Shown here in pieces: positions 1 through 63,516 of a stretch of DNA of 64,000 nucleotides. Below the pieces are notes generated by a model. That model saw nothing but the letters and a program-made list of their open reading frames with translations. It was not told the DNA's origin and ran no database searches. Source of the stretch: Hyphomicrobiales bacterium (GTDB lineage: Bacteria; Pseudomonadota; Alphaproteobacteria; Rhizobiales; JANPGK01). The DNA is taken from positions 278 through 64,277 of the forward strand of contig JANPGK010000008.1 of the NCBI GenBank assembly GCA_031423895.1. The letters are read 5' to 3'. Every line of letters starts with the position of its first letter. The stretch's first letter is position 1. A program made the position numbers and the translations under genes.

Positions 1-1422
1 AATTTTGGCGTGCCCGAGCTTAATTTATTGAAAGTGTATGAGGATGTGAAAGCGGCTGGGCGGGTGATTAATGCGCTGACGGCAAACGTGCCAGACAGCA
101 TCAAAGAATCTGGCCAATTCGAAGTCAACCGCTACCAATCCATGATGATTCGCGGTGCAAGCCGCGAGGCGATGGCGGCATTTGTGGCCAGCGGCGGGTT
201 TCAAACTACAGGCCGCCTGCGGGAAACGATCGAGAGTGCACAGCGTGCGGGCTATCAGCCCCCCACCTCCGAGATGTTAATGGTGATGCAGCTTGAAGGC
301 GCAGTCTATCATCGCTCGGAAGCGGGCGAAGTGACCATTCAATTCCCATGCCCAACACTGGGTGTGTGCGGCTACACACTGCAGCAGTTTAACGCGATTT
401 TTGGCGATAATGCTAAGAAAATTGCAGTGATGGATGTGCTTGAAAAAGGTGAAGATTATCGCAAAACCATGACGCAACTTGGCATGCAAATTGGGGCAGA
501 TCAAGCGAGCTATTTAGACATGTATTTCCGCACCATGCTACGCTGCGCATGGGAAGAACCCGAAGTCTTCCGCCAATTCATCACAAAATACCCTACGGCA
601 CTCACCTCAGCCGCAAATTTGATGGGGATTGAGTCGACTGCAATTCAGAATATTACGAATGAAGCGTTCCGCGCAGGTTCAACAAAAGCCAGCACTTTGG
701 CAGTTTATAATAATCAACTCAGCACCAATGCACTGTTTTTGGGTAGCCTTGCCAATTCTGTGACAGAAATCAAAATGATTGCTGGCACAGCCTACCGCGC
801 TTATTTGGGCAATGCAGCTGCACAACAAAAAGTGGCAGAGTTCACTGTGCTCACCAATGAGTTTTTGCGGTACGCGGGTGAGCACCCCAATGAAGTGAGC
901 CAAACCATGCTCAACCAATTTGCAGAATATGCAGGGCGTGTGGCAGATGGCGACATTGATGCAATTACCAGTTTGGGGGCAGATTTAGCATTTTTTACAG
1001 CTGTTACAAAAGCAATTAATGCTGGCGCGGCGGCTGGAAGAGTGAGTGCTGGGACTGCAAGTAAGATTATCAATGAAACGCTAACTACGACTATACAAAG
1101 AGGTTTTGATATTTCCAATTTGGAAAGTAAACTATCTATTTATTTGTTAAATCCATCACATCCAAAAAATCAATTCAAGGCAATTTGGTTTGAAAAGGCT
1201 CTGGGGTTTAATCAAAATAATTGGCAACAATTAGCAAATCAGCTATACTTTAATGAAAGTACTGCTGTTTTAAGAAAGACTACACAATACGGAACGGAAT
1301 ATAATCAAATTATTCCAATTACTGGAACAAATGGACGAGTAATAAATGTTGAGTTTGGATTCACAAAGTATGCAGATGGAAAAGTTACTTTTAATACGGG
1401 GATTCCAACAGAGAAAAAATGA
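1..1422 (+). CDS. C-terminal part of a large polymorphic-toxin-like protein (5' end outside window) with an exchangeable AT-rich C-terminal module
   Basis: Frame 1 is open from nt 1, so the gene starts upstream. The sequence turns visibly AT-rich from about nt 1060. The last ~110 aa contain KLSIYLLNPSHPKNQFKAIWFEKALGF, reminiscent of DUF6883-type C-terminal modules of polymorphic toxins. Immunity-like genes follow directly. Confidence 0.55.
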   Translation, partial: NFGVPELNLLKVYEDVKAAGRVINALTANVPDSIKESGQFEVNRYQSMMIRGASREAMAAFVASGGFQTTGRLRETIESAQRAGYQPPTSEMLMVMQLEGAVYHRSEAGEVTIQFPCPTLGVCGYTLQQFNAIFGDNAKKIAVMDVLEKGEDYRKTMTQLGMQIGADQASYLDMYFRTMLRCAWEEPEVFRQFITKYPTALTSAANLMGIESTAIQNITNEAFRAGSTKASTLAVYNNQLSTNALFLGSLANSVTEIKMIAGTAYRAYLGNAAAQQKVAEFTVLTNEFLRYAGEHPNEVSQTMLNQFAEYAGRVADGDIDAITSLGADLAFFTAVTKAINAGAAAGRVSAGTASKIINETLTTTIQRGFDISNLESKLSIYLLNPSHPKNQFKAIWFEKALGFNQNNWQQLANQLYFNESTAVLRKTTQYGTEYNQIIPITGTNGRVINVEFGFTKYADGKVTFNTGIPTEKK

Positions 1423-1697
1423 TGGAAAAGTTTAAGGAGAATGATTTAGCTAAACTTAAAATAGCGGTTCATGGAAAATCCCTCCAGGAACCTTATGATG
1501 ATATTTTAATACCAAAAGAAAGTGTAGGCGTAATATTATCTGTTTTTGATTATCCAAATTTACCACTGGCTTACTTATTAGAGTTTTATTTAAATGATGG
1601 GTATGTTTCTGCAACTGTAGAAGCAAAATACATTATTGGAACTTGTTATAAATCTACTAAAAATGATAAGGCAAATAGACGTAATAGTAAGAAATAA
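1419..1697 (+). CDS. putative cognate immunity protein (92 aa, possibly DUF4926-like)
   Basis: The ATG overlaps the toxin stop (ATGA at 1419-1422). Composition is the same AT-rich type. It is small and sits where a cognate immunity gene would. The family assignment comes only from a remembered pattern. Confidence 0.4.
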   Translation: MMEKFKENDLAKLKIAVHGKSLQEPYDDILIPKESVGVILSVFDYPNLPLAYLLEFYLNDGYVSATVEAKYIIGTCYKSTKNDKANRRNSKK

Positions 1698-1702
1698 ATG
1701 AT

Positions 1703-2161
1703 ATGAGCAAAATCGAAAAAATTCTTAATAATTTTTCTGAGGCAACAGGAACCAAATTGGTTGGTTGTAGCGATAAAGAAATTTTAGACATTGAAAAATA
1801 TTTTGGTGATAATTTACCTAAAGAATATGAGAATTTTATGCGAATTGCTGGGAAAAAAGCAGGTGAATTGTTCGTTGGTTCTGATGTTTTTTATCCAAAT
1901 GTATTAAATACAAAAAGAGGCACTAAAGATTTACTAGAAGAAAATAATCTTGTTGGAATTATACCAGATAATGTCTCTCCATTTTTTATGCATCAAGGTT
2001 ATATAATAAATTTCTTTCTTGATAATTCAGATGATCCTAAAGTTTATGAATTTATGGAAGGAGATGCTAAACCAAAACTTCTATATGATAGATTTTCAGA
2101 ATTTTTAAATGATAATATACAATCGTATATTAAACATTTGTCAATTTTAAAATCATCTTAA
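1703..2161 (+). CDS. SMI1/KNR4 (SUKH-1) family immunity-type protein
   Basis: 152 aa. LPKEYENFMRIAGKKAGELFVGSDVFY and the overall size match SUKH immunity proteins. It starts 5 nt after the previous ORF and is AT-rich. Confidence 0.65.
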   Translation: MSKIEKILNNFSEATGTKLVGCSDKEILDIEKYFGDNLPKEYENFMRIAGKKAGELFVGSDVFYPNVLNTKRGTKDLLEENNLVGIIPDNVSPFFMHQGYIINFFLDNSDDPKVYEFMEGDAKPKLLYDRFSEFLNDNIQSYIKHLSILKSS

Positions 2162-2390
2162 ATGCGCCAATTCCTCTCCCTCCTCCTCTCGCTCTTAATT
2201 CTTTTCAACAGCATCGTGAGCGCGCATGCGCTGCCGTGCGGGCTTTAGGCATGGTGTTCGCTGTCACCAATGGGGCGAAGCTGTTGGCGAGAATGAAGTG
2301 TGTCTATTTGCACCATAGGACACATCCCTTGCGCTTCTATGAGTATATTTGAACTATCATTCGCAGTTAATTCACATTGATTGGCGGAGA

Positions 2391-3323
2391 TCACCTCACC
2401 AACCCCTTGGCCTTTAATTTTTCGCAGGTGGACGTCTCAAGGCGTTTTGGTGTGAACCAGATATAGTCGAACAGTGGCGTTGTAAGGGATGTTTCGTTTG
2501 GGAGTTTCAAATACTCTTGCGGGTTTTTGCTGTCTTTAAGTTCAATAAATGCAACTGAAAGTGTGGTTTTGCCTGTGATGTGGGCGGGGATGGAGCGGTC
2601 TTTTCTCGCGTGGGCGCGGCCAGCGATGATGAGCGCAGGGGAATTTATTTGGGCGGCGCGGGCCATTGATTGATCACGCGCGATTTGCAGCTTTGCCAGC
2701 GGCGCAAGCGCTTCAGGTGTGAGCGTGTTGCAATGCGCGGTTTGCAGTGTGGCGTTCCATGAGTTGGTTTGTGAAGCAGTGATGTTTATTGGCGATTTCC
2801 CCGCGCGAATATCCTGCTGCTCTTGTGCTGGAATATCACCGCCAATGATTGGCCAGCGCGCGCGCATTGCGGCTTCAAACACGGGTTTATACAGGGTAAA
2901 ATCTGGCCAGCCAGAGGCGCGCCAATTCAGCGCTGCGCCCAAATTGGTGGCATCTTCAGGGCTGGATTTGATAAAATCGTCAGCGGTTTGTGTGTGGGTG
3001 CTGTCAAGCATTTCAAGTACAAGCGCGGCATTTTTGCCTTTTTCACTCAGCGCATTGATCAGAAACACCTGCCGGGCGTGATGGTCGGGGTTGCCATGGG
3101 TTTCGCCAATTATTGTTACATCAGCCGCCATAATTTTTGCAACCAATTCTTGTTGTGAGATGGCACTGCGCGCTTGGACATCCCAAATTGTGTTGAGGAG
3201 CGGATGGGCAGGCTCTGCATGAACTGGCGGCGTTTCAAGTGCGACAATAGATAGGTACAAGACCGCTAGGCGGCACATTGTGCGCAGCAGCAAAAAAAAC
3301 GGTTGCAGAAGTTGTTTATGCAT
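2391..3323 (-). CDS. ChaN-family (haem-binding, PF04187-like) periplasmic/lipoprotein
   Basis: Has an N-terminal signal sequence. TIIGETHGNPDHHARQVFLINAL and the downstream pattern are typical of ChaN-like iron-regulated proteins. Confidence 0.7.
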   Translation of the reverse strand: MHKQLLQPFFLLLRTMCRLAVLYLSIVALETPPVHAEPAHPLLNTIWDVQARSAISQQELVAKIMAADVTIIGETHGNPDHHARQVFLINALSEKGKNAALVLEMLDSTHTQTADDFIKSSPEDATNLGAALNWRASGWPDFTLYKPVFEAAMRARWPIIGGDIPAQEQQDIRAGKSPINITASQTNSWNATLQTAHCNTLTPEALAPLAKLQIARDQSMARAAQINSPALIIAGRAHARKDRSIPAHITGKTTLSVAFIELKDSKNPQEYLKLPNETSLTTPLFDYIWFTPKRLETSTCEKLKAKGLVR

Positions 3324-3373
3324 CTTAAGGTTTTATTAATATCTTCTAAAGTTGAAGTCAAGCTGAGTGCCAA

Positions 3374-5722
3374 ATGCGTAGAATGGTGATGTGGGGCGTG
3401 CTGTATTGCGTGATGTGCAGTTTTGCGCAGGCGCAAGCCATTCGCGTGGATGGCAGCACAGCCACCAGTGTGAGTGTGGCGCCAAGTGGCAAACTCACAG
3501 TGCAGATTGCTCCCAAAAATTCTGGCGGCGTCAGCCTCAATAAATATCAAAATTTTAGCGTGCCAAGTGCAGGTGCAACGCTCAATAATAGCGCGCAATC
3601 GGCCAAAGTGATTGTGAATGAGGTCACATCAACCGCGACATCAAGCATTAATGGTGTGCTCGATATTGCGGGTGCGCCTGCGCATGTGATTATTGCGAAC
3701 CCAAATGGCATATCAGTGAATGGTGGGCAATTTGTGGGGTTTGGTGGTGTGGCACTCACCACAGGCGTGCCAAATGTGAGCGGTGGCAATATTGCGCTTT
3801 CCACTACGCAAGGGCGTATTGTTATAGATGGTGCGGGGCTGACGAGCGATGGCGGGCGGCTCGATATCATCGCCAAAGATGTGGAGATTTCAGGGCCAGT
3901 GAATGCTGGTACTGGCGTATTGAACATCATCGCGGGGCATAGCATCCATAATTTTGATGCAAATGCGGCAGCAAGCGATTGGGTGAGTTATCAATCGCAA
4001 ATCCTGCCGTCTCGCACCGATATTGCTCTTACCATTTCTCAAGGCGCGGTGTTGAACGGTGGAGCAATTCGCCTGCGGGTGACAGATCAAGGCGCGGGCG
4101 TGCGCTGGGCGGGCAGTACAACAGCAGGTGCCCAAGGCGTGCGCGTGCAAAGCAATGGCGTGCTGACACTGGCAGGCGTGAATGTGCAAAGCGCAGGCAG
4201 TGTTGAATCGAGCGCCAAAGCAATTGCGACGGATGGCACAGCCCGCACAAATATCACCTCCGGCCAAAGCGGAGTGCGTTTGCTCAGCACATTGGGGGAT
4301 ATTGACCTGTCCAACATTGATATTGCTGCGGTGACGCGCGATGTGAGCAGCTTTGCGCCACTTGGCGGCATAAGTATTGAGGCGGCGCAAAATTTGCGGC
4401 TTGTGGGCACATCAGTTGCGCCTTCAACATTGAATGTGAGCGGTGATAGCCTTGCCCTCACAGCGCAAGGGGCGATGTTTATTGACTATGTGACAGCCAG
4501 TGCTGTTGGCACGCAATCGAGCATTATCAATGCTGGTGGTGTAGCAACTTTCAATAATTCCGCGCTGAATTTCAATGCGGTGTCGCTGTTGTCGCAAGGC
4601 GATGTAGCAGTAAATAGCACGAATGTAATCGCGCAAAATGGCGCGAATTTTACGGCGCCATCATTTGTCTTCACCTCTAACCCGCTTACACAAAATACAC
4701 TGCAAAGTGTTGGGGCGGGCGTAAGTATAGTGGCGCAAACCGGTGATATTCACAATAATGGCATGCTCATCAAAGGTTATGCAACAACCGCGGGGGATTC
4801 CAATAGTAAAGGCGGGCTGACCTTACTGGCGCCGAACGGCAATATTCTCAACACAAGTGTGAACGGCACTGCGCTTGGCACGTTAAGTGCGGATATTGAG
4901 GCATTAGTGTTAGAGGCTGGTGGGTATATTCGCAATTTATCAGGTAAGTTATTGTCTAATAATGCCATCACACTCACATCCACAGGTGAGGTGCGGAGTG
5001 AAACACTGATGCAAGGCACGGCAGATGTGCAAAATCGCACTAGCAGTTTGGCATTGGGGTTGGGCACAAAACAGGTCCATTCTGCATTTTACCCTGCACA
5101 ACTGATCGCTAATGAACGCGCCACAATTTCAGCTGGAGAAGATTTGACGATCAACGCGGCGTCACTCACCAATAGTGCTGGCATTGTGGAGGGGCGCAAA
5201 GTGAATATCACAACCACAGGTGATGTGCGCTCATCCAGCGTGGTGAGTGGTGATGCGTATTTTCGGCGGCGCTGCATGATCTTCTGCCGCGCAACAGGCC
5301 ACGCCAATATAGCACTGGTGGAAGGCAGGCTCACCTCGCAAGACACACTCACCATTTTGGCAGGCGGCACGATTGAAAGCCTTGGTGCAATCTTTATTGG
5401 TGGGCTCGATACGCAGTTAACGGCCGCGCATGTAAGGTTTGGCAGTGTGCTGTATCCATCGCTGATGTTCCGCCCTGCTGGTGTGCTTGGTGCGTTTCAT
5501 GGCAATGATGGGTGGGCGAGCTTGGCGTATAATGGCGGGTTTGTGTCGTCCACGCTCGGTGCAATCAACATCGCTTCGCCTGATATAGTTTATGAGGGCG
5601 TGAATGTCGCGGCGTTTGGCGGGGTGACAACAAGCTCAACAGTACTCAAGCGCACCGTGCCAATTGGTGCAGGGATTATCAAACCGCGCCCCATTGGCTT
5701 TTTTGCTGGGGTGCTGAAATGA
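3374..5722 (+). CDS. two-partner-secretion exoprotein (TpsA, filamentous-haemagglutinin-type N-terminal TPS domain), 782 aa
   Basis: Signal peptide ending SFAQAQA. TPS-domain motifs NKYQNFSVPSAGATLNN and HVIIANPNGISVNGGQF. The remainder is beta-helix-like and rich in G/A/S/T/N/V. The stop overlaps the tpsB start (ATGA 5719-5722). Confidence 0.85.
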   Translation: MRRMVMWGVLYCVMCSFAQAQAIRVDGSTATSVSVAPSGKLTVQIAPKNSGGVSLNKYQNFSVPSAGATLNNSAQSAKVIVNEVTSTATSSINGVLDIAGAPAHVIIANPNGISVNGGQFVGFGGVALTTGVPNVSGGNIALSTTQGRIVIDGAGLTSDGGRLDIIAKDVEISGPVNAGTGVLNIIAGHSIHNFDANAAASDWVSYQSQILPSRTDIALTISQGAVLNGGAIRLRVTDQGAGVRWAGSTTAGAQGVRVQSNGVLTLAGVNVQSAGSVESSAKAIATDGTARTNITSGQSGVRLLSTLGDIDLSNIDIAAVTRDVSSFAPLGGISIEAAQNLRLVGTSVAPSTLNVSGDSLALTAQGAMFIDYVTASAVGTQSSIINAGGVATFNNSALNFNAVSLLSQGDVAVNSTNVIAQNGANFTAPSFVFTSNPLTQNTLQSVGAGVSIVAQTGDIHNNGMLIKGYATTAGDSNSKGGLTLLAPNGNILNTSVNGTALGTLSADIEALVLEAGGYIRNLSGKLLSNNAITLTSTGEVRSETLMQGTADVQNRTSSLALGLGTKQVHSAFYPAQLIANERATISAGEDLTINAASLTNSAGIVEGRKVNITTTGDVRSSSVVSGDAYFRRRCMIFCRATGHANIALVEGRLTSQDTLTILAGGTIESLGAIFIGGLDTQLTAAHVRFGSVLYPSLMFRPAGVLGAFHGNDGWASLAYNGGFVSSTLGAINIASPDIVYEGVNVAAFGGVTTSSTVLKRTVPIGAGIIKPRPIGFFAGVLK

Positions 5723-7407
5723 GAATTTCATTTGCGCATTTAAGTGTATTTTGCTTTTTCTTGGGTGTCAGCCCTGTTTTGGCCCAACAAGATCTCGGTC
5801 TCGATTTGCTCAAGGCGCAAACACAGGCGCAGCGTTTGCAACATTTAGAGCGTGGGCAACAGGGCAATGCACTGGCGGGTGAGCAAGCCCCCACTGCCAA
5901 AAGCCCAGTGTGCTTTGATATTCACCACATTAATATTACGGGTGTAAATGCGCTGCCAGCGAGCCAAGTGGCGGAATTTGCCAAACCCTATCGTGGTACA
6001 TGCATGGGGCAGTTTGAGATTGAAGCGCTGATCACGAGTGTTAAAAATGCCTATATCAAGCGCGGCTTAATCACCACCCAATTGGTTGTGCCGCCGCAAG
6101 ATTTAAAATCGGGCACGCTCAACATGCAGGTGGTGGAAGGCATGGTGGAGCGGTTGGAATATTACCGCGTGTGGGATGCTAAAAATACCGCTCGCCCTGC
6201 CACACGATTGGCGCGCGACATAGCCTTTCCCTATGTGGAGGGGTATCAGCTCAATTTGCGTGATATTGAGCAAGGCATTGCACAAATCAATCGCAATTCT
6301 GCCTCGCAAGCCACGGTGGATATTTTGCCTGGCACGCAAGTGGGCACTAGCGTGGTGCGGGTGATTGAGCGCAAAACGGCACGGTTTCACCCCAGTTTTG
6401 GCTTTGATACGCGCGGCAGCAAAGATGTGGGGCATAATCGCATAAAACTTGGCTTTGAGATGCAAGATGCGATTTACCCCTTTGATGCGTGGAATTTTAC
6501 CTATTCTGGCACGCGTGCCTCCAACGCGTTGGCGGGGTCAGTGAGTTTGCCTCTGGGGTATTTCACTCTGCAGGCCAATGGTTCCTATTCCGAGCAAGAC
6601 AAGGCTGTTTCTGTGCTGGCCAATAGTTTTTCGCAAACGGGCACGGGTTCGGTGGCGATTGATCGGGTGATGTATCGCGACCAAAACATGATTTTCCACC
6701 TCAATCAATCTATGAACAGTTATTGGGGGCAAAGCAGCATCAATGCGGCGCGGCTGACACCACAACGCTTTTCATGGCTGCGCTCTAGTGCGAATGTGGA
6801 ATATTTTTTGGAGAAAACCAAATTTGTGGCCGATGTTGGGGTGAGTTATGGCCTGCCGCAAATGGCGGGTGGCTCGGCCGAGTTTGGTGGGGATCAATTC
6901 ACACCACGCGCAAATTTTAAAAAATTGGATGCAGCACTCGTGGCCATTCACAGTTTTGGCGAGAATTGACAGGCGGTTGCGCAGCTGAATGGTCAATATG
7001 CCCCGCGTGTGCTGTTCAGCCCACAAGCCTTAGGCCTCACCAGTTTTGAGGCCGTGCGTGGGTTCAGGGACATTTCACTGCAAGGTGATGTGGGCGGCTA
7101 TGGGCGTGTGGAGGTGCAAAAGAGTTTTGCGCTGATGCAGCCACTGGAAAAAGGAAAATCACCTGATTTATTATATCAAACGCAAGCTAAACTCGGCCAA
7201 AGCGCATCTCTATTTGGTTTTGTTGATGGCGGCGTGTTGCGACGCTATTCCACCCATTCAGGCGATCAATTGCTTTCCACTGGGCTAGGTGCACGCCTTA
7301 ATGGCGCCAACTTAAGCCTAGATGCCGTGCTGGCCGTGCCACTTATTCACCCTACTACGTTTAAGGGGAAACCCGAGCTTACCATGTCACTCACCTATAA
7401 ATTCTAA
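5719..7407 (+). pseudogene. ShlB/FhaC/HecB-family TpsB outer-membrane transporter interrupted by one in-frame TGA (6967-6969)
   Basis: POTRA region CFDIHHINITGVNALP...LNMQVVEGMVERLEY, and barrel motif LFSPQALGLTSFEAVRGF after the stop. Track ORFs 5719-6969 and 7009-7407 share frame 1. Together they give about 560 codons, a normal TpsB length. Confidence 0.75.
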
Positions 7408-7418
7408 AGGAGCATCCC

Positions 7419-8219
7419 ATGAACCGCATTCTTATCACAACATTACTGGCAACTGTGTGCTTCAGCGCAGCTTTTGCAACGCCACTGCAAGATGGCCTGA
7501 AAGCCATTGATGCCAAGGATTACCCCAAAGCCAGCAAGCTATTGGCAGAAGCTTTTGAAAAGGGCGAGCCAGATGCCGCATTTTATATGGGGCGATTGTT
7601 AGAGGTGGGGATTGATGGCAAAGCCGACCCACAAGCGGCTGTGGCAATGTATGCGGCGGGCGCTGCCAAAAACAGTGCGATGGCCAAAAACCGCCTTGGC
7701 GTTCTGCACATGGAAGGCACAGGTGTGTTGCAAGATTATGAGCAAGGCAAAAAGCTCATTTGTGAAGCCGCAGAAGCGGGTGACGCCAATGCGCAGTTCA
7801 ATTGTGGTGCGCTCTATGATCAAGGCAAAGGCGTGACCAAAGACACAAAAAAAGCCATGGATTGGTATAAAAAATCAGCTGAAAAAGGCAATATTGCGGC
7901 CAAAAATAGCCTCGGAATTATTTATGCTGATGGTGCGGAAAAAGACACCACAAAGGCATTCCAAGTCTGGCAGCAAACCGCCGCTGTTGGCAATCCATTT
8001 GGTTTATTTCGTTTGGGAGATGCCTATGGGCGCGGTGTTGGCACTCCTAAAGACCTTGTGAAGGCGCATGCATATCTCAATCTCGCTTCTGCACGCGGTG
8101 TGAATGAAGCACAGGCCATTCGTGCGGAGCTTGAAAAGCAACTCACACCTGAACAAATTACCCAAGCCCAGCAAATCGCCCGCAGCTGGAAACCAGTGGA
8201 GGATAAGGGAAAGAAGTGA
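7419..8219 (+). CDS. secreted Sel1-repeat (TPR-like) protein
   Basis: Signal peptide MNRILITTLLATVCFSAAFA. Contains repeated Sel1 units (AFYMGRLLEVG, NRLGVLHMEGTGV, QFNCGALYDQGKGV, AMDWYKKSAEKGN, NSLGIIYADG). Confidence 0.85.
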   Translation: MNRILITTLLATVCFSAAFATPLQDGLKAIDAKDYPKASKLLAEAFEKGEPDAAFYMGRLLEVGIDGKADPQAAVAMYAAGAAKNSAMAKNRLGVLHMEGTGVLQDYEQGKKLICEAAEAGDANAQFNCGALYDQGKGVTKDTKKAMDWYKKSAEKGNIAAKNSLGIIYADGAEKDTTKAFQVWQQTAAVGNPFGLFRLGDAYGRGVGTPKDLVKAHAYLNLASARGVNEAQAIRAELEKQLTPEQITQAQQIARSWKPVEDKGKK

Positions 8220-14207: not shown

Positions 14208-15029
14208 TCATACATGCCGCTGTACTTGGGCTAGTAAACTCAACGTCTTCTTGAAATATCCCTTTTTTGTATTTGGATCAAGCATAATTTTATTGCTTTC
14301 ATAAAGTTGATCCATTTTTTTTGCTGTACTGGGATTGTAGTCTCGCTTTGCGAGCCAACGCGGCTGAGCTATTGAGCCTTTGAGAACAATAAATATACCA
14401 TTTATTTCTTGTGCGTGGGCAACTAAATTTTGTTTTTTGTTTGTAAGTACAAAAATTGGTGATGCTTCATTTGATATATTTTTGTTTTGATTACTATCAT
14501 TAACATTAGAAACTTGAATTTTTTCTCGGAAATAATCTAACCCAAGAACTGGCAATATCAATTGAATTTGAGAAATAAAATATTCCATATCCGCAATATC
14601 GGCCTCTGGAAGCAAATCATACACTGGTGCGGTGGAGTTTATAATTTTTACAACTCCCGACTTCTGAACAATATTTATAAGTTTGCTTTCTAAAAAACGT
14701 GCGTGAGATTTGGTAATATTCTGATCTTTACTCGTGATCACACATGTCTTTTCCCAAAAATCTTTCGATGAATCACGGTTGTGCTGTGTTAAGCGAGCAC
14801 CCACATTGTCGCTTTCACCAATATATACTTGCGTTGCACCAGAACCTTCAGTATCATTTCCAGTAAGCAAATAAACACCAGTCTTTTTCATTTCTGGGCG
14901 CAAAATTAGCTCAGCAATTTTACTACGTGGTGAACACAATACGTGCCCTGTCCAATTCATAATCTCAGCTGTAAGAATCCCATTTGGTGATCCATCTGCC
15001 AGAAATATTTTGATGGATTTACCTTTCAC
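14208..15029 (-). CDS. GIY-YIG nuclease family protein with a split C-terminal DUF4357 domain (0-frame product; -1 frame continues to 14107)
   Basis: GIY-YIG core VYLLTG...QVYIGESDNVGARLTQH...FWEKTCVI...KSHARFLESKLI. The conserved DUF4357 tail (FTSPSTAA...NGRIEWK) is encoded in the -1 frame downstream of nt 14262. AT-rich. Confidence 0.75.
   Translation of the reverse strand: MKGKSIKIFLADGSPNGILTAEIMNWTGHVLCSPRSKIAELILRPEMKKTGVYLLTGNDTEGSGATQVYIGESDNVGARLTQHNRDSSKDFWEKTCVITSKDQNITKSHARFLESKLINIVQKSGVVKIINSTAPVYDLLPEADIADMEYFISQIQLILPVLGLDYFREKIQVSNVNDSNQNKNISNEASPIFVLTNKKQNLVAHAQEINGIFIVLKGSIAQPRWLAKRDYNPSTAKKMDQLYESNKIMLDPNTKKGYFKKTLSLLAQVQRHV
14262..14268 (-). other. A AAA AAG heptamer at the frame change of the GIY-YIG/DUF4357 gene (candidate -1 slippery site or homopolymer indel)
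   Basis: The minus strand reads aca aaa aag gga in the 0 frame. The -1 frame then reads GGG ATA TTT CAA GAA GAC GTT GAG TTT ACT AGC CCA AGT and onward to a TAA at 14107-14109. Confidence 0.5.
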
Positions 15030-16704: not shown

Positions 16705-16901
16705 GTGCTGCGCCTCATTGATATATGGTGCACATGGCTAGAGGAAATTGCGGGGAAGCGCAAGATAGATTGAGCGGATATACGAATACGCAGGCGTGTA
16801 AGCCTATAGTTGAATTGTTGCACAGCGCATAAAATGATAAATTGAGGCCTGCTAATGCTATATTGGAGGCCTTTTTGGGCAAAATTGGCGCAACAACGCA
16901 T

Positions 16902-17900
16902 ATGAAAGAAACGACACCTCATCACGGTGGTGGGGCATTTAAGCAGGCTGTGCATAAGGCTAAAGCGCCAACTGCGCACAAGGATCCATTGCATTCATTG
17001 TTCAGCAGGCTCGCAACAAGCAGTGCGCAGCAAAAAAAGTTCAATATAGAAAAAATTCAGGCCGTTAACGCACTCAAAATTACATCGACACCTGATGGCC
17101 GCACCCCTAAAAGCTTTTCGTTTGTGCTGTCATACTCAAAGGATAAGACATCAAGGGCACAGTTTGAGAATTTGAACGCAAAAACAACACCCTATTTTTA
17201 TCATGACATTAGAGCATCAGAAAAATCTGATATGGTCTATGTTTTTAAGAAAACGCTCAAAGAGCATATTCTGAAATATGGCCTGCCTTTAGAAGAAGTT
17301 ATGTTTGGAGCGCATGGCGGTTCAATGAAGGTTTATGAGGAAACGCCTGTAAACAATAATAGCGATCAATCTGAAAACGTAGAAAATATGATTGATGCGA
17401 TTAAAGAGCTGCAGTCAGAATTTGGCGGAATGCAGATTACTAAGAACATTGTAATCCCAGGATGTCAGATTTTTACACGCCTAAGTGAAAAAAATGTACA
17501 TTACTTACATACATCAGCGCAGCAATTAAAATCAAAAATAGCCTCAGATACAATTGTAGAATGGGTCTGTTCTCAAAATTTAGGTCGCTTCTATGAATTT
17601 ACAGGTGATCCCTGTAAGCCCTTACAAATAAAGCGTATTTACAAACGAGATGACATATTGGCCCCGCTGGGGGCAGGATTCTCAGAGTTATTTTTGAACA
17701 CCAGAAAAGATACAGAGTGGATCAAATTTTACAATAATCACCGCGAATACAAAAATACAGATTTTGAAAAAGGTCAGAAATTGCACAAAGCATATGATGA
17801 ATGGGGTAAAAATAAACGCATTGAGGATGCAAAAAAGGCTAAAAAAGCACAAGAGCGATTTGAAGCTGTAAACTGGTCTAAAGCGGGGCTGCCTTTCTAG
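16902..17900 (+). CDS. hypothetical protein, AT-rich orphan with a caspase-like (clan CD-type) His-Gly...Cys arrangement
   Basis: The start was moved to MKETTPHH. EVMFGAHGGS (His codon 17313-17315) and NIVIPGCQIF (Cys codon 17463-17465) lie 50 residues apart, each after a hydrophobic strand. There is no confident family match. Confidence 0.45.
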   Translation: MKETTPHHGGGAFKQAVHKAKAPTAHKDPLHSLFSRLATSSAQQKKFNIEKIQAVNALKITSTPDGRTPKSFSFVLSYSKDKTSRAQFENLNAKTTPYFYHDIRASEKSDMVYVFKKTLKEHILKYGLPLEEVMFGAHGGSMKVYEETPVNNNSDQSENVENMIDAIKELQSEFGGMQITKNIVIPGCQIFTRLSEKNVHYLHTSAQQLKSKIASDTIVEWVCSQNLGRFYEFTGDPCKPLQIKRIYKRDDILAPLGAGFSELFLNTRKDTEWIKFYNNHREYKNTDFEKGQKLHKAYDEWGKNKRIEDAKKAKKAQERFEAVNWSKAGLPF

Positions 17901-35740: not shown

Positions 35741-36220
35741 TTAGGCCTGTGGGGTAGCACTATCCGTGCTAGAATTGGAGCGCTTAGAAAACAATCCTGA
35801 AACAGCGGCAACATATGCAAGTGCACCAAAACTGAGTAATTTCATGTATACTTTGGATGACAGAAAAATTTTTCCGATGTCTGTATAAAATGCTTTACGT
35901 TGTGGATTTGCGCCATCAATTGCACGTTTCCATTCTGCAGGGCTGTTTATGTCCCATATGCCTTGCAAAAATTTAGCATGCTCCGATTTATACATTGTAT
36001 GGCTTAAATTTATAGAAGTTTTTAAACTCAGTTTAAAATCGCCTATGTGCAAAGGGTCAATTTGATTAAGGGTATGGTGTGAGTGCTGTAAAATAGCATT
36101 TTCATTTACAATGGGTGTTTTATCAAAATCAACATATGAACACATTTGATTCACAAATTGTTTCATATAATTGAGGCCATCTGCTGCGGTATTAAATTTA
36201 ATAGTCATAATAATCACCAT
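35741..36220 (-). CDS. small C-terminally TM-anchored hypothetical protein, tandem paralogue 1
   Basis: 159 aa, AT-rich. It begins MVIIMTIKF and ends SKVYMKLLSFGALAYVAAVSGLFSKRSNSSTDSATPQA. Roughly 50 percent identical by eye to the 36413-36880 product. Confidence 0.55.
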   Translation of the reverse strand: MVIIMTIKFNTAADGLNYMKQFVNQMCSYVDFDKTPIVNENAILQHSHHTLNQIDPLHIGDFKLSLKTSINLSHTMYKSEHAKFLQGIWDINSPAEWKRAIDGANPQRKAFYTDIGKIFLSSKVYMKLLSFGALAYVAAVSGLFSKRSNSSTDSATPQA

Positions 36221-36412: not shown

Positions 36413-36880
36413 TTAAGCCTGAGGTATGCGAGTTTCAGGTTGTTTTGAAAAAAGCCCTGAAACAGCGGCAACACATGCAAGCGCACCAATGCCTAGTAAT
36501 TTTAAATATACTTTGGACGACAAGAAAAACTTACCTATTTCAATTAAACTCGGTTTGTGTGATGCAGGCGCGGCTTCAATTGCTCGTTTCCAATCCGCTG
36601 GGCTATTGACATCCCAAACTTCTTTAAGATATTTAGCATTAAATTTTTTATTTACTTGTTTAGAAGCCTCCACGGAGGCTTTTAAATTGTTTTTGAATAG
36701 CACTAATTGATCAGAGTCAATTTCGTTAAGTGTATGTTTGGCATGCTGTAAAATTGCATCTTCGCTAACAATCGGATTTTTATTAAAGTTCACATAATCT
36801 TCCATTTGCATGATAAAATTTGTAACATACTGTATACCTTGTTCAGATGTAGTAAAACGTATAGCCATTATAATCACCAT
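36413..36880 (-). CDS. small C-terminally TM-anchored hypothetical protein, tandem paralogue 2
   Basis: 155 aa. It begins MVIIMAIRF and ends SKVYLKLLGIGALACVAAVSGLFSKQPETRIPQA. Confidence 0.55.
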   Translation of the reverse strand: MVIIMAIRFTTSEQGIQYVTNFIMQMEDYVNFNKNPIVSEDAILQHAKHTLNEIDSDQLVLFKNNLKASVEASKQVNKKFNAKYLKEVWDVNSPADWKRAIEAAPASHKPSLIEIGKFFLSSKVYLKLLGIGALACVAAVSGLFSKQPETRIPQA

Positions 36881-36976: not shown

Positions 36977-38374
36977 TCACCCCAACGTCTTCCTCCACCT
37001 CGCTGCCTGTGCGCGCACGTTCTTCGGGGCTGTGCCGCCGAAGCTGATGCGGCGCTTGATCGCGGCTTCGGCGGTGAGCACTTTGAACACATCGTTGGTG
37101 ATGGTGGGTTCGATGCTTTGCAATTGCGCGAGCGTTAATTTATGCAGTGGTTTTTTGGCATCTTCGGCCAGCTTCACCGCGCGGCCCGTGATGTGGTGCG
37201 CTTGGCGGAACGGAATGCCCAGCGCTTGCACCAGCCAATCGGCCAATTCAGTTGCGGTGGAATAGCCGCCACTTGCTGCCGCCTTCAGGGCAGGGGCGTT
37301 CACTTGAATATCGGCCACCATGCCTTCCATCACCGCAAGGCATAAGGAGAGCGTTTCTAGCGCGTCGAACGTGGCCTCTTTATCCTCTTGCATGTCCTTG
37401 GAATAGGCCAGCGGCAGGCCTTTCATCACCATGAGCAGCCCTTGGAAATGCCCCGCAATGCGGCCAATTTTGGCGCGCACTAATTCTGCGGCATCGGGGT
37501 TGCGCTTTTGCGGCATGATGGAGGAGCCGGTGGAGTATTTATCGGACAGGCTAATAAAATGAAACGGCGCGGAGCACCACACCACAATTTCCTCGGCAAA
37601 ACGGCTCAGATGCATTGCGGTGATGCTAGCGGCGGCCATGGCCTCGAGCGCAAAGTCGCGGTCGGATACGCTATCGAGCGAATTGGCGGTGGGGCGGGCA
37701 AAGCCTAGCTCCTTGGCCACAAAGTGCCGGTCAATCGGGAAGCTGGTGCCCGCCAGCGCGGCGCTGCCTAGCGGGCATTCGTTCATGCGATTGCGCGCAT
37801 CGACAAAGCGGGAATGGTCGCGCCCCAGCATTTCCACATAGGCCATAAAATGGTGCCCAAGCGTGACAGGCTGCGCGGTTTGCAAATGGGTGAAACCCGG
37901 CATCAGCGTGGCGGCATGCTCCTGCGCGCGCAGCACAAACGCCTGCTGCACCGCTTCGATCTGCTGCGCAATCGCATCCACCATATCGCGCACCCACAGG
38001 CGGAAGTCGGTCGCCACTTGGTCATTGCGCGAGCGCGCGGTGTGCAGGCGGCCAGCCGCTGGGCCGATCAACTCCGCAAGGCGGGATTCCACATTCATAT
38101 GGATGTCTTCCAGCGCGGTTTGGAAGGTGAACTGCCCGCTTTCAATCTCGCCCTGAATTTGCAGCAGCCCTTTGGTGATAGCGGCGCGATCTTCCTGTGA
38201 AATAATCCCCTGCTGCGCGAGCATAGCCGCATGCACGATGGAGGCGCGGATGTCTTGCGCATACATTTTTTTGTCAAAACCAATCGACGCGTTGATGGCC
38301 TCCATCATTTTATCACTTGCACTTTCAAAGCGGCCACCCCACATAGGGTTGGAAGGTGTTGATGTGTTACTCAT
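36977..38374 (-). CDS. argH: argininosuccinate lyase
   Basis: [38 protein letters not shown]... and [12 protein letters not shown]. The start was set at 38374; the longer track ORF to 39052 runs antisense through tlpA. Confidence 0.95.
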
Positions 38375-38393
38375 GCTGCGCTCCGAAGGATAG

Positions 38394-39008
38394 ATGATGA
38401 CCCGTAAAATTGGCTTTATATCTGCAATAATCGCATTGGCGTGTATAGCATTATTTTGGGGCACGCGCCCGCAGCCCGCGCCAATTGCTGCTGCGCCGCA
38501 GTGCCAAATGGTAGATCGGGCGCAGTTAAACGCGCTTGCAGTGGGCGAAATTGCGGGGCTGAAGGTGCTCGATGTGCCGCGCCTATTGCCTGCACTGGCA
38601 TTTGAAGATGCAACAGGGGCGCCCATTTCGCTCGCAAATTTTAAAGGCAAAGCGGTGCTCATGAACTTTTGGGCCACATGGTGCGCGCCCTGCCGTGAGG
38701 AAATGCCAGCGCTAGATGCATTGCAATCGACATTCAACCCGCAGCACGCGCAGGTGGTGGCCATCAGCATGGATGTGGGCGGAATTGACAAACCCAAAAA
38801 ATTTCTTGACGAAATTCGCGCCACGCGCCTCACCCTATATGCCGACCCAAAAGGCCAAATGATCAAGCAATTAAAGGCATTGGGACGCGGCACAGGGTTG
38901 CCCACCACGTTGCTGATCGACAAAAATGGCTGCGAACAGGGCTTTTTGCTCGGGGCAGCCAATTGGAATAATGAAAATATGCAGAAAATTATCAAATTAT
39001 TTGAATGA
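38394..39008 (+). CDS. tlpA: TlpA-family thiol:disulfide oxidoreductase (thioredoxin fold, membrane anchored)
   Basis: N-terminal TM segment and [23 protein letters not shown]. It is divergent from argH, as in many alphaproteobacteria. Confidence 0.8.
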
Positions 39009-39275
39009 GTTAACGCATTGGTTTTTAACAAGAATTTGCTATCCTGAATCACAACTTACGCGATTAATCGCAAAAAGTTATACACAGATGCGAAAATCGC
39101 CAAACTAGGGGGGTGACAGATCGAAAAACTGTATTACTCTAAACGTTAGCGCCAAAAGAGCGCATGATGTAGCACACCAGAATGCTATATACATAAATGG
39201 AAACATTCAATCGCCCGCTGGGGGCACTGACGTGCAGCAAAAATGCGCACGCAGTTTATAAAAAAGGAGGCAACG

Positions 39276-47163: not shown

Positions 47164-47673
47164 ATGATCAACCCCACCAAATCAGAGCCGTATCGTTATT
47201 GTTATTGGGGAGATGTCGCACAAAATGCCGATGGCACAATCTCTGAAGAGGGCACAATATTTGATGGTATTAAGGATTTGATCGTGATTGAACCCGCGAC
47301 GGGAAAAATTTATGTTCAAAAAGGGTCTCAAAAACCAGGTGGGAAAATTGACGATATTAATATTGATCCTACGATTGCCTATGAAACCACGTTTGACAAT
47401 ATTGAATATAAAATGCTGCTCGGTAAAACAAGTTTTTACAGTATGATCGATTGGGATGGTGATCAAAAAATGGATTATTGTACATATATGCCAGAAGAGC
47501 ATTTGTTTTTAACGAAATTATCGGATGCCAATTCTAAATTACCTAAGATTTATGAATTTGAGAACGAAGGTGACTCTAAAGAATTAAATGTGAATGATGA
47601 TGCTGAATGGGATATTGTGTTTCGGCGCGGCACAAGTTTATTAACGCTTATAAAGCATTATCATACGCAATAA
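47164..47673 (+). CDS. hypothetical protein, AT-rich orphan inserted between the EIIA(Man) and HPr genes
   Basis: 169 aa with RBS CAGGAGGATAAAATG. No recognised domain and no TM segment. Its stop is 20 nt before the HPr start. Confidence 0.5.
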   Translation: MINPTKSEPYRYCYWGDVAQNADGTISEEGTIFDGIKDLIVIEPATGKIYVQKGSQKPGGKIDDINIDPTIAYETTFDNIEYKMLLGKTSFYSMIDWDGDQKMDYCTYMPEEHLFLTKLSDANSKLPKIYEFENEGDSKELNVNDDAEWDIVFRRGTSLLTLIKHYHTQ

Positions 47674-62511: not shown

Positions 62512-63516
62512 ATGGTTATGTGGATGGTGCGGAGCAGCGGGGGGCGCATTACTAATGCTTTTATTGAAAGAGGATTAGTCGCTATCGGTTGGGATGCATT
62601 GCCCATGAATATTGTTGATTACAAATCACGTGAGGATATTCGAAAAGCGGTTTCATTGTCTTGGCCAGACATGAAAGAAGGTGCGATTAGTACGTCTGTA
62701 GGGCAACTCTTAAAATTTGCGAAAACTCTAAAACGTGGAGATTCAGTAGTGACATATGATTCTGCTGCACGTCAGTATTATATTGGAGAAATTATAGGTG
62801 ATCACGAGTATCATAGTAATGCTGAAAATGGCTTTACAAATACACGATCTGTCAAATGGGATCCTAAACCTATTAGCCGTGATAATTTAAGCAATACTAC
62901 AAAGAATTCTTTAGGCAGCATTCTTACAATATTTAAGGTTCCAGAATTATCGGAGCAAGAATTATTAGCGAAAAATTCAGGTCAGTTAATTCAGGAAATT
63001 AAAAATAAGAAAAATGATGAAATTGATGAGTCTTCAATTGAATTGCAGATCAACAGTGTGCAGGAGAAAGCATTTGAACTTATTAAAGATAAGGTCATTG
63101 CATTAAGCTGGGAAGATATGCAGGAGCTTGTTGCAGGCATATTGCGTGGCATGGGCTATAAAACACGCATTTCGCCTTCTGGATCGGATCGTGGAAAAGA
63201 TATTATTGCCTCGCCAGATGGATTGGGATTTGAACCACCTCGAATAGTGGTTGAGGTTAAGCATCGCAAGGGGGCTATGGGTTCGCAGGAAATTCGCAGT
63301 TTTTTAGGTGGACGTCATAAAGATGATAAAGGTTTGTACGTAAGTACAGGTGGTTTTACTAAAGAGGCCAAATATGAAGCAGAACGCGCAAATATTCCCC
63401 TGACGCTTATAGATATTGATGATTTAGTGAGTATACTGCTCGAAAATTATGAAGCTATGGATACGAACATGAAAACCCTCATTCCAATAAGTCGTATATA
63501 TTGGCCAGCTGATTAA
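62512..63516 (+). CDS. Mrr-like type IV restriction endonuclease with an unassigned N-terminal domain
   Basis: The C-terminal Mrr_cat pattern is WEDMQELVAGILRGMGYKTRISPSGSDRGKDIIA...IVVEVKHRKGAMGSQEIRSFLG...GLYVSTGGFTKEA. The N-terminal ~110 aa (GRITNAFIERGLVAIGW...) differ from the usual Mrr_N. AT-rich. Confidence 0.8.
   Translation: MVMWMVRSSGGRITNAFIERGLVAIGWDALPMNIVDYKSREDIRKAVSLSWPDMKEGAISTSVGQLLKFAKTLKRGDSVVTYDSAARQYYIGEIIGDHEYHSNAENGFTNTRSVKWDPKPISRDNLSNTTKNSLGSILTIFKVPELSEQELLAKNSGQLIQEIKNKKNDEIDESSIELQINSVQEKAFELIKDKVIALSWEDMQELVAGILRGMGYKTRISPSGSDRGKDIIASPDGLGFEPPRIVVEVKHRKGAMGSQEIRSFLGGRHKDDKGLYVSTGGFTKEAKYEAERANIPLTLIDIDDLVSILLENYEAMDTNMKTLIPISRIYWPAD

Follow-up and report, generated by a model that had tools for sequence, protein, structure and literature searches.

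The window analysed here is a stretch of 64,000 nucleotides (nt) from a Hyphomicrobiales bacterium (contig JANPGK010000008.1), and its first 2,161 nt carry the 3′ part of a putative polymorphic-toxin gene followed by two immunity-type genes (Table 1). The toxin open reading frame (ORF), in frame 1, is open from nt 1 to a TGA at 1420-1422; 473 amino acids (aa) of it lie within the window, and its 5′ end is truncated. The ATG of the second ORF, ORF2, overlaps the stop codon of the toxin ORF as ATGA, and its own stop codon (1695-1697) is separated by only 5 nt from the start of the third ORF, which encodes a protein of the SMI1/KNR4 (SUKH) family. An initial annotation, made from the DNA letters alone, had described the same arrangement, including the ATGA overlap, the 92-aa length of ORF2 and the 5-nt gap, with coordinates that agree with the present ones within a few bases.

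Table 1. Features of the toxin locus and of the export genes downstream of it (coordinates of the window; FHA, filamentous hemagglutinin; TPS, two-partner secretion; GC3, GC content at third codon positions).
Feature	Position	Strand	Basis
Putative pre-toxin body of FHA/CdiA-like exoprotein ORF, frame 1, Pfam-less, mostly helical	1..1056	+	Architecture of relatives
Last conserved pre-toxin motif, RVADGDIDAITSLG, consensus RVA-DGDxEAIG	937..978	+	Body family alignment
Linker and DUF6883 (BECR-Tox3) toxin domain	1057..1422	+	Pfam match at nt 1123-1350; family alignment reaches the stop codon
AT-rich island (toxin tip and two immunity-type genes), GC 0.285	1057..2163	+	Change-point fit, GC3, GC profiles
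ORF2, 92 aa, divergent DUF4926-like, predicted cognate immunity	1419..1697	+	ATGA coupling, neighbour profile, position
SMI1/KNR4 (SUKH-1) protein, 152 aa, read as extra orphan-type immunity gene	1703..2161	+	Pfam, GC3 0.13
ChaN-family haem-binding protein	2391..3323	-	Pfam Cofac_haem_bdg 8.6e-33; 36-39% identity to L033/L034 genes
Small TpsA, 782 aa, TPS secretion domain	3374..5722	+	Pfam TPS 3.4e-35; 32-36% identity to ~800-aa TpsA of L033/L034
TpsB (ShlB/FhaC-type), candidate toxin exporter	5719..7407	+	Pfam ShlB, POTRA_2, POTRA_3
Sel1-repeat protein, last gene of the module	7419..8219	+	Pfam Sel1 5.1e-30; 51-63% identity to L033/L034 genes

The locus is marked by a sharp change in base composition. 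A maximum-likelihood two-breakpoint fit over nt 1-3300 places the breaks at nt 1057 and 2163 (log-likelihood gain 77.6), and the GC content of the three segments goes from 0.500 to 0.285 and back to 0.517. The left break agrees with the switch from GC-rich to AT-rich DNA that the initial annotation had placed at about nt 1060; the right break lies one base beyond the stop codon of the third gene. GC3 follows the same course, with 0.50 in the body of the toxin ORF, 0.21 in its tip, 0.18 in ORF2 and 0.13 in the SUKH gene. The AT-rich island between the two breaks is the lowest-GC 1.1-kb stretch of the entire window, in which the median GC is 0.50 and the 5th percentile 0.40. An independent Logan assembly (L001, run SRR20217181) is base-for-base identical to the window over the cassette region. 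Therefore, the break is real, and an assembly chimera is ruled out as its cause. L001 adds 138 nt upstream of nt 1 (46 aa) before its contig ends, and the frame stays open through all 519 codons. Comparable GC drops are found at the tips of relatives (see below). The island is probably a single cassette that was acquired horizontally. Neither direct nor inverted repeats were found flanking it, no second copy of DUF6883, the body or SUKH was found within the window, and no terminator-like site was found after the SUKH gene.

Two minor observations concern the island and its right edge. Between nt 900 and 3500 of the window, sigma-70-like promoter matches number 11, compared with 5.8 ± 2.5 in shuffled sequences. 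They lie mostly inside the AT-rich cassette, one of them upstream of ORF2 (1221-1249), and the excess may simply reflect AT-richness. Directly after the SUKH stop codon, where normal GC resumes, there is a 28-codon ORF (2162-2248, + strand) that reads MRQFLSLLLSLLILFNSIVSAHALPCGL and is signal-peptide-like. It may be what is left of the 5′ end of a gene that the incoming cassette displaced.

The tip of the toxin ORF belongs to the family DUF6883, as the initial annotation had proposed. The Pfam model (PF21814) matches aa 375-450 with E = 8.9e-13 and 48.9 bits, well above the gathering cutoff of 27, and the tip scores 147.5 bits against a profile built from 25 DUF6883 family members. NCBIfam gave no matches for the three products. 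In a word-indexed search the whole 473 aa returned a single match, an Rhs-DUF6883 protein, and the tip alone returned nothing. A small alignment of the tip and this one database relative retrieved 30 DUF6883 loci, which span Firmicutes, Actinobacteria, Proteobacteria, Bacteroidota, Planctomycetota and other phyla. In 29 of the 30, the carrier ends with DUF6883, which makes up its final ~100 residues; in the remaining locus, L008, the tip is in a frame-shifted ORF. All 29 carrier ORFs scanned match Pfam DUF6883. They range from 106 to 2379 aa, the 106-aa one being a stand-alone protein, and include RHS (7), WXG100-like/WXG100_2 (5), VgrG, PT-TG and SpvB/TcdB proteins. Such a C-terminal position on many unrelated carriers is the signature of a polymorphic-toxin C-terminal domain; together with the fold match described next, it bears out the earlier view of this region as a polymorphic-toxin tip. 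The closest relative of the tip, 55% identical, is the C-terminus of a hemagglutinin of Rhizobium leguminosarum CB782 (plasmid CP007069.1).

Structural comparison provides some clues regarding the potential activity of the tip. In the AlphaFold2 model (mean predicted local distance difference test score, pLDDT, of 70) helices at residues 5-16, 29-35 and 42-46 are followed by strands at 57-62, 65-75, 81-90 and 96-103, in keeping with the N-terminal helices and four-stranded antiparallel sheet of the BECR fold. Among PDB entries, Foldseek ranks 6CP9 first, with all four of its toxin chains (CdiA-CT of Klebsiella pneumoniae 342, Kp342), at template modelling (TM) scores of 0.64-0.69 and probability 1.0. 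The next ones are 6CP8 and 6VEK (CdiA-CT of E. coli 3006). In a viral fold library the top matches are phage 'minor capsid protein' (MuF-type) fusions (E between 9e-6 and 2e-4). At the sequence level, phage genome records gave no tblastn match to the tip, and PDB sequence searches with the tip profile and with the tip found nothing meaningful. In a 2026 preprint, DUF6883 has independently been renamed 'BECR-Tox3' and described as a colicin-like BECR RNase with DUF4926 as its putative immunity protein, and its fusions to phage MuF were noted in the same work (bioRxiv 10.64898/2026.08.28.747851). The Kp342 toxin is a colicin-D-like BECR tRNase that acts on uncharged tRNA-Ile(GAU), needs GTP, EF-Tu and EF-Ts, and has the active-site residues K157, Y160, H170, R252 and T255 (PMC9086364). 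The invariant DUF6883 residues K11, Y15, H21, R97 and T100 are spaced comparably and may be their equivalents. Besides the order of helices and strands and this K/Y/H...R-x-x-T spacing, the two would have delivery on a CdiA-type carrier in common. They differ in that no sequence similarity is detectable, identity being 18-23% in the structural alignment only, and in the partner: the CdiI of Kp342 is built of one helix and nine strands (PMC9086364) and is not of the ~70-aa DUF4926 type. From the model, the tip is predicted to be a colicin-D-like RNase, and by analogy with the Kp342 CdiA-CT it is most likely a tRNase.

The gene that follows the tip is equally informative. In 26 related loci an ORF of 61-84 aa assigned by Pfam to DUF4926 lies directly 3′ of the DUF6883 gene, at a distance of -4 to +79 nt (counted from the tip end in the frame-shifted L008). 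ORF2 scores 18.1 bits (E = 6e-5) against a profile of these 26 proteins, the best of 2000 shuffles reaching 8.9 bits, and it is the top match of that profile among 848 ORF segments of the window. Relative to the DUF4926 family, it has a ~10-residue insertion and a basic C-terminal tail. The stop codon of the Rhizobium toxin gene is overlapped by an unannotated 74-aa ORF. Its product and ORF2 share 33% identity (E = 8e-9) and a comparable insertion. This ORF is also below the Pfam DUF4926 model, yet it reaches 26.9 bits against the neighbour profile. Thus, the suggestion that ORF2 is DUF4926-like holds by the neighbour profile and by the Rhizobium ORF, and fails by the Pfam DUF4926 search. NCBIfam and PADLOC gave no match to ORF2, a word-indexed search returned only ORF2 itself, and a PDB sequence search gave nothing meaningful. 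These matches make ORF2 a divergent DUF4926-like protein, one of a subfamily that accompanies a divergent DUF6883 subfamily on TPS carriers. Its ATGA overlap couples it translationally to the toxin ORF, and it is predicted to be the cognate immunity gene.

SUKH proteins are a classic immunity family of polymorphic-toxin loci. The third ORF matches Pfam SMI1_KNR4 (PF09346) with E = 2.1e-11 and 45 bits (cutoff 25.4), so that the identity first given to it stands. It also matches SUKH_6 (33.5 bits, cutoff 27) and SUKH_5; in PADLOC the SUKH match is only sub-threshold (E = 0.017). Since this protein is of a classic immunity family and is encoded in the same AT-rich island, and since ORF2 fails the Pfam DUF4926 model, it could be argued that SUKH is the cognate immunity protein, and that ORF2 is an accessory or adaptor protein or confers immunity to another toxin. 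This is very unlikely. In the Rhizobium locus and in 26 related loci alike, the first ORF downstream of the toxin gene is of the DUF4926 type. ORF2 is coupled in translation to the toxin ORF, and none of 27 second-downstream ORFs of related DUF6883 loci is a SUKH protein (0/27). Nor was any ORF resembling the window SUKH found within 3 kb downstream of the related DUF6883 carriers. The closest plasmid-borne SUKH relative is 32% identical. Because SUKH is absent from the related DUF6883 loci, the window gene is read as an extra immunity gene, and the initial proposal of an extra orphan immunity gene fits well with its place in the same AT-rich block, 5 nt after ORF2. The gene resembles the SUKH immunity genes of polymorphic toxin loci in scoring above the Pfam threshold and in following directly after a toxin/immunity pair. 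It differs from them in having no preceding toxin fragment; a gap of only 5 nt leaves no toxin remnant before it.

The GC-rich body of the toxin ORF belongs to no Pfam family. A Pfam scan of the 473 aa revealed no VENN, PT-VENN (PF04829, E ≤ 1), Rhs, PAAR or LXG signature, in agreement with the earlier remark that the body has no recognisable carrier domain. When the body was used as a single-protein query, scans of genomes and metagenomes gave no relative, and alignments of it diverged too much to serve for pattern scans. An exhaustive phmmer search of 1.84e9 representatives found 18 (best E = 4.8e-12), of which 10 have Fil_haemagg_2 repeats immediately N-terminal to the matched region. Three complete relatives (P0011, P0018 and P0020) begin with a TPS secretion domain. 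The C-termini of the relatives are unrelated (PT-HINT, GmrSD_C, a papain-fold glutamine deamidase (Gln_amidase), or without an assigned family). One body shared by unrelated tips, the GC break at nt 1057 and an ORF2 that overlaps the toxin stop codon together uphold the layout of a swappable toxin/immunity cassette, which the initial annotation had recognised. Judged by the architecture of its relatives, the body appears to be a rare, Pfam-less pre-toxin module that follows the hemagglutinin repeats in two-partner-secretion exoproteins.

The body family has an entry motif in common, ATxGxG...LNRD, which is present in the 46 extra residues from L001, and its alignment shows three conserved Cys. 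The last conserved motif of the family is RVA-DGDxEAIG (RVADGDIDAITSLG in the window). The relatives diverge completely after it, so this motif is the positional equivalent of the VENN demarcation. The GC break lies ~26 codons downstream of the motif end. Similarity to the Rhizobium tip starts at about nt 1096; together with the break at 1057, this places the swap junction within ~13 codons. The model of the body (pLDDT 67) is mostly helical, and a PDB fold search with it returned noise only (TM < 0.2). No Fil_haemagg repeats were found within the available 519 aa. One of the relatives, P0012 (body-like, with a GmrSD_C tip), is found on a JGI metagenome contig (L035, 143-6139), where it follows a Tox-REase-5 fragment and a 180-aa ORF and precedes ORFs of 299 and 640 aa. 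The arrangement suggests an array of orphan toxin/immunity modules from the same effector lineage.

Downstream of the SUKH gene, four genes encode a ChaN-family protein, a small TpsA, a TpsB and a Sel1-repeat protein. An orthologous module, likewise with ChaN on the opposite strand, is found in L033 (1383-7489) and L034 (1407-7862); the individual genes are 32-63% identical to those at 2391-8219 of the window. In both, the large toxin TpsA comes straight after the module, and TpsB is one or two genes upstream of it; in the window the module follows the toxin cassette. Such a conserved module beside toxin genes supports two-partner secretion through the TpsB of that module. The delivery route had been left open, and the body relatives and the gene neighbourhood now point with reasonable confidence to two-partner (type Vb) secretion, probably through the TpsB encoded 4.3 kb downstream of the toxin. 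Since the module adjoins a large toxin TpsA in three genomes, one TpsB may serve two TpsA substrates. The 782-aa TPS protein might have been a paralogue of the toxin gene or its missing 5′ portion. Both ideas were rejected because it has no similarity to the toxin fragment; only a TPS domain would be common to it and the toxin ORF. The link with ChaN hints at a haem-related role for the small TpsA. The tail of L032 was considered as a further ChaN and rejected.

Taken together, nt 1-2161 are best explained as the 3′ end of a Gram-negative polymorphic toxin locus of the contact-dependent-inhibition type, a reading to which we give a probability of about 75%. The ORF would be the pre-toxin region of a full-length FHA/CdiA-like exoprotein exported by two-partner secretion. 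Joined to it would be a C-terminal DUF6883/BECR-Tox3 toxin of ~120 residues, acting as a colicin-D-like RNase. The producer would be protected by ORF2, which presumably binds and blocks the toxin, and the SUKH protein would be a spare immunity protein against a toxin that the cell does not make here. Tip, ORF2 and SUKH gene were probably gained jointly, through recombination a short way 3′ of the final motif conserved in the pre-toxin family. Such a joint acquisition would account for the sharp drop in GC from 50% to 28.5%. Of all this, the data show which domains are present and where they lie, the conserved pairing of the genes, the limits of the AT-rich segment and the family of the carrier, while RNase activity, the immunity function, export through the downstream TpsB and the status of the ORF as part of a full-length gene are inferred.

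Several observations weigh against this reading. First, the available 519 aa contain neither a TPS domain nor a start codon, the 5′ end being missing, and four relatives (P0012, P0015, P0005 and P0019) are free-standing orphan modules of 555-759 aa. In these, a stop codon ends the frame 9-39 codons before the called start, and a small ORF follows each. Orphans of the cdiA-CT/cdiI type whose start is close to the pre-toxin motif are well known (PMC9086364). The window ORF could likewise be a promoterless, 5′-truncated toxin/immunity cassette, located downstream of a main cdiA-like gene or apart from it and serving as a silent reservoir that recombination can transfer onto that gene. The four orphan modules are among its closest body relatives, and one of them is in the toxin-fragment array on the JGI contig. 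Moreover, the L001 contig stops just 138 nt before nt 1; if the hemagglutinin repeats border on that point, such an end would fit a sequence that is repeated elsewhere in the genome. However, the frame is still open through 519 codons, and the locus stands beside a TPS export module, as the full-length genes of L033 and L034 do. The ATGA coupling and the intact ORFs in DNA of 28% GC also suggest expression. We regard a silent cassette as possible, although on balance somewhat unlikely.

Second, the TpsB of the window is paired with its own small TpsA, and its gene contains a stop codon (TGA at 6967-6969, with A for G at nt 6969, in place of TGG for Trp-417), which shortens the protein from 562 to 416 aa. 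Position 6969 is the only mismatch between the window and L001 in 11.7 kb; L001 has TGG there and an intact TpsB of 562 aa. This stop codon may be genuine, an inactivating polymorphism, or may come from an error in assembly. Third, ORF2 has no Pfam match at E ≤ 1 and thus fails the DUF4926 model (PF16277). Fourth, the toxicity and RNase activity of the tip are predictions. The model of the tip was built from a two-sequence alignment, its residues 17-28, which include the conserved His and Lys, have pLDDT below 50, and the Foldseek E-value of the tip match is only 2e-3.

The sequence of the tip itself is the last of these points. It departs from 23-24 of 24 relatives at S7N, G24N, K67E, W88F, R97T and L98F. 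R97 may correspond to the catalytic R252 of Kp342. A toxin without it could be attenuated, and R97T and L98F may affect catalysis. The Rhizobium copy shares N7, N24 and F88, has Thr at 67, and keeps R97 and L98, so R97T and L98F are unique to the window tip. Perhaps, then, the tip is decaying or inactive and only the immunity genes are maintained, the locus being a protection island. The unique substitutions at such conserved residues, with two basic residues lost (K67E and R97T), are consistent with decay, and so are the position of ORF2 as the most divergent DUF4926-like sequence in the set and the nonsense codon of the neighbouring TpsB in the window assembly. Nevertheless, N7, N24 and F88 are common to the Rhizobium FHA-type copy and are therefore a mark of the subfamily rather than of decay. 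Among the family-invariant residues the window tip keeps K11, Y15, H21, K27 and T100 (Y15, H21, K27 and T100 along with 14 others), and no frameshift or stop codon interrupts the 364 AT-rich codons. A Lys at position 95, unique to the window copy, could compensate for the missing Arg, and TpsB is intact in L001. A decayed tip is accordingly unlikely.

Comparison with known systems shows how much of this locus is familiar. The carrier of the CdiB/CdiA/CdiI systems of the E. coli and Burkholderia types is a TpsA with hemagglutinin repeats, as the window protein probably is too. Shared with the window are a conserved pre-toxin region ahead of a variable C-terminal toxin and an immunity gene that comes next after the toxin gene. 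The GC drop at the swap junction, the orphan modules among the relatives and the nearby TpsB gene are further likenesses. In contrast, the window has neither PT-VENN nor an alternative motif (ELYN, LPEN and others listed in PMC9086364), its pre-toxin body of ~350 aa is Pfam-less, helical and marked by three conserved Cys, and the gene order is toxin, immunity, immunity, chaN (on the opposite strand), small tpsA, tpsB. With the BECR-Tox3/DUF4926 pair of the preprint (bioRxiv 10.64898/2026.08.28.747851) the window shares the domain family and the downstream partner; it differs in that the carrier is probably a TPS/FHA exoprotein and not MuF, and in that the partner is below the Pfam DUF4926 model.

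The closest counterpart is on the CB782 plasmid of R. leguminosarum bv. trifolii (CP007069.1), where RLEG12_02570 (2700 aa) contains a TPS domain, five Fil_haemagg_2 stretches and a C-terminal DUF6883. Its tip, 55% identical to that of the window, shares N7, N24 and F88, an ORF2-like gene overlaps the stop codon, GC falls from 0.59 to 0.43 where the tip begins, and the locus includes a ShlB-type TpsB. The differences are a pre-toxin region unrelated to the window body, the retention of R97 and L98, the absence of SUKH and the upstream position of TpsB. This plasmid record is an essentially complete precedent, and the window system is of an already known sort. What is left as new is an uncharacterised, non-VENN pre-toxin module and its conserved export neighbourhood. 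One could go further and suppose that the helical, Cys-bearing body of ~350-400 aa is an undescribed pre-toxin or translocation module of a rare, non-VENN CdiA-like lineage tied to ChaN, small TpsA, TpsB and Sel1 genes, with one TpsB for two TpsA, and that the R97T/K67E tip is a functional DUF6883 variant with altered catalysis or specificity and not a decayed one. This extended proposal is speculative, and we consider it doubtful.

The locus offers a compact and well-bounded natural replacement of a toxin tip in a two-partner-secretion effector, its left boundary being defined to ~13 codons and its right boundary to 1 nt. It ties the DUF6883/DUF4926 pair to a CdiA-like carrier, with the Kp342 tRNase as a structural analogue. 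The Pfam-less pre-toxin module and its conserved export-gene neighbourhood could be added to polymorphic-toxin profile sets. The present understanding of how such systems work is unchanged.

Elsewhere in the window, low-GC islands (0.29-0.37 in 400-nt windows) contain Pfam-less ORFs of 155-352 aa at 14208-15029 (-), 16842-17900 (+), 35741-36220 (-), 36413-36880 (-) and 47164-47673 (+). These may be further horizontally acquired genes. Another low-GC patch contains a 334-aa ORF (62512-63516, +) with an Mrr_cat restriction-endonuclease domain (E = 1e-25), which is probably a defence gene. Finally, the argininosuccinate-lyase ORF at 36977-39052 (-) is 691 aa long as listed, with the Lyase_1 domain only from residue 239. 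The explanation is either a GTG start listed too far upstream or an unexplained N-terminal extension of the protein.

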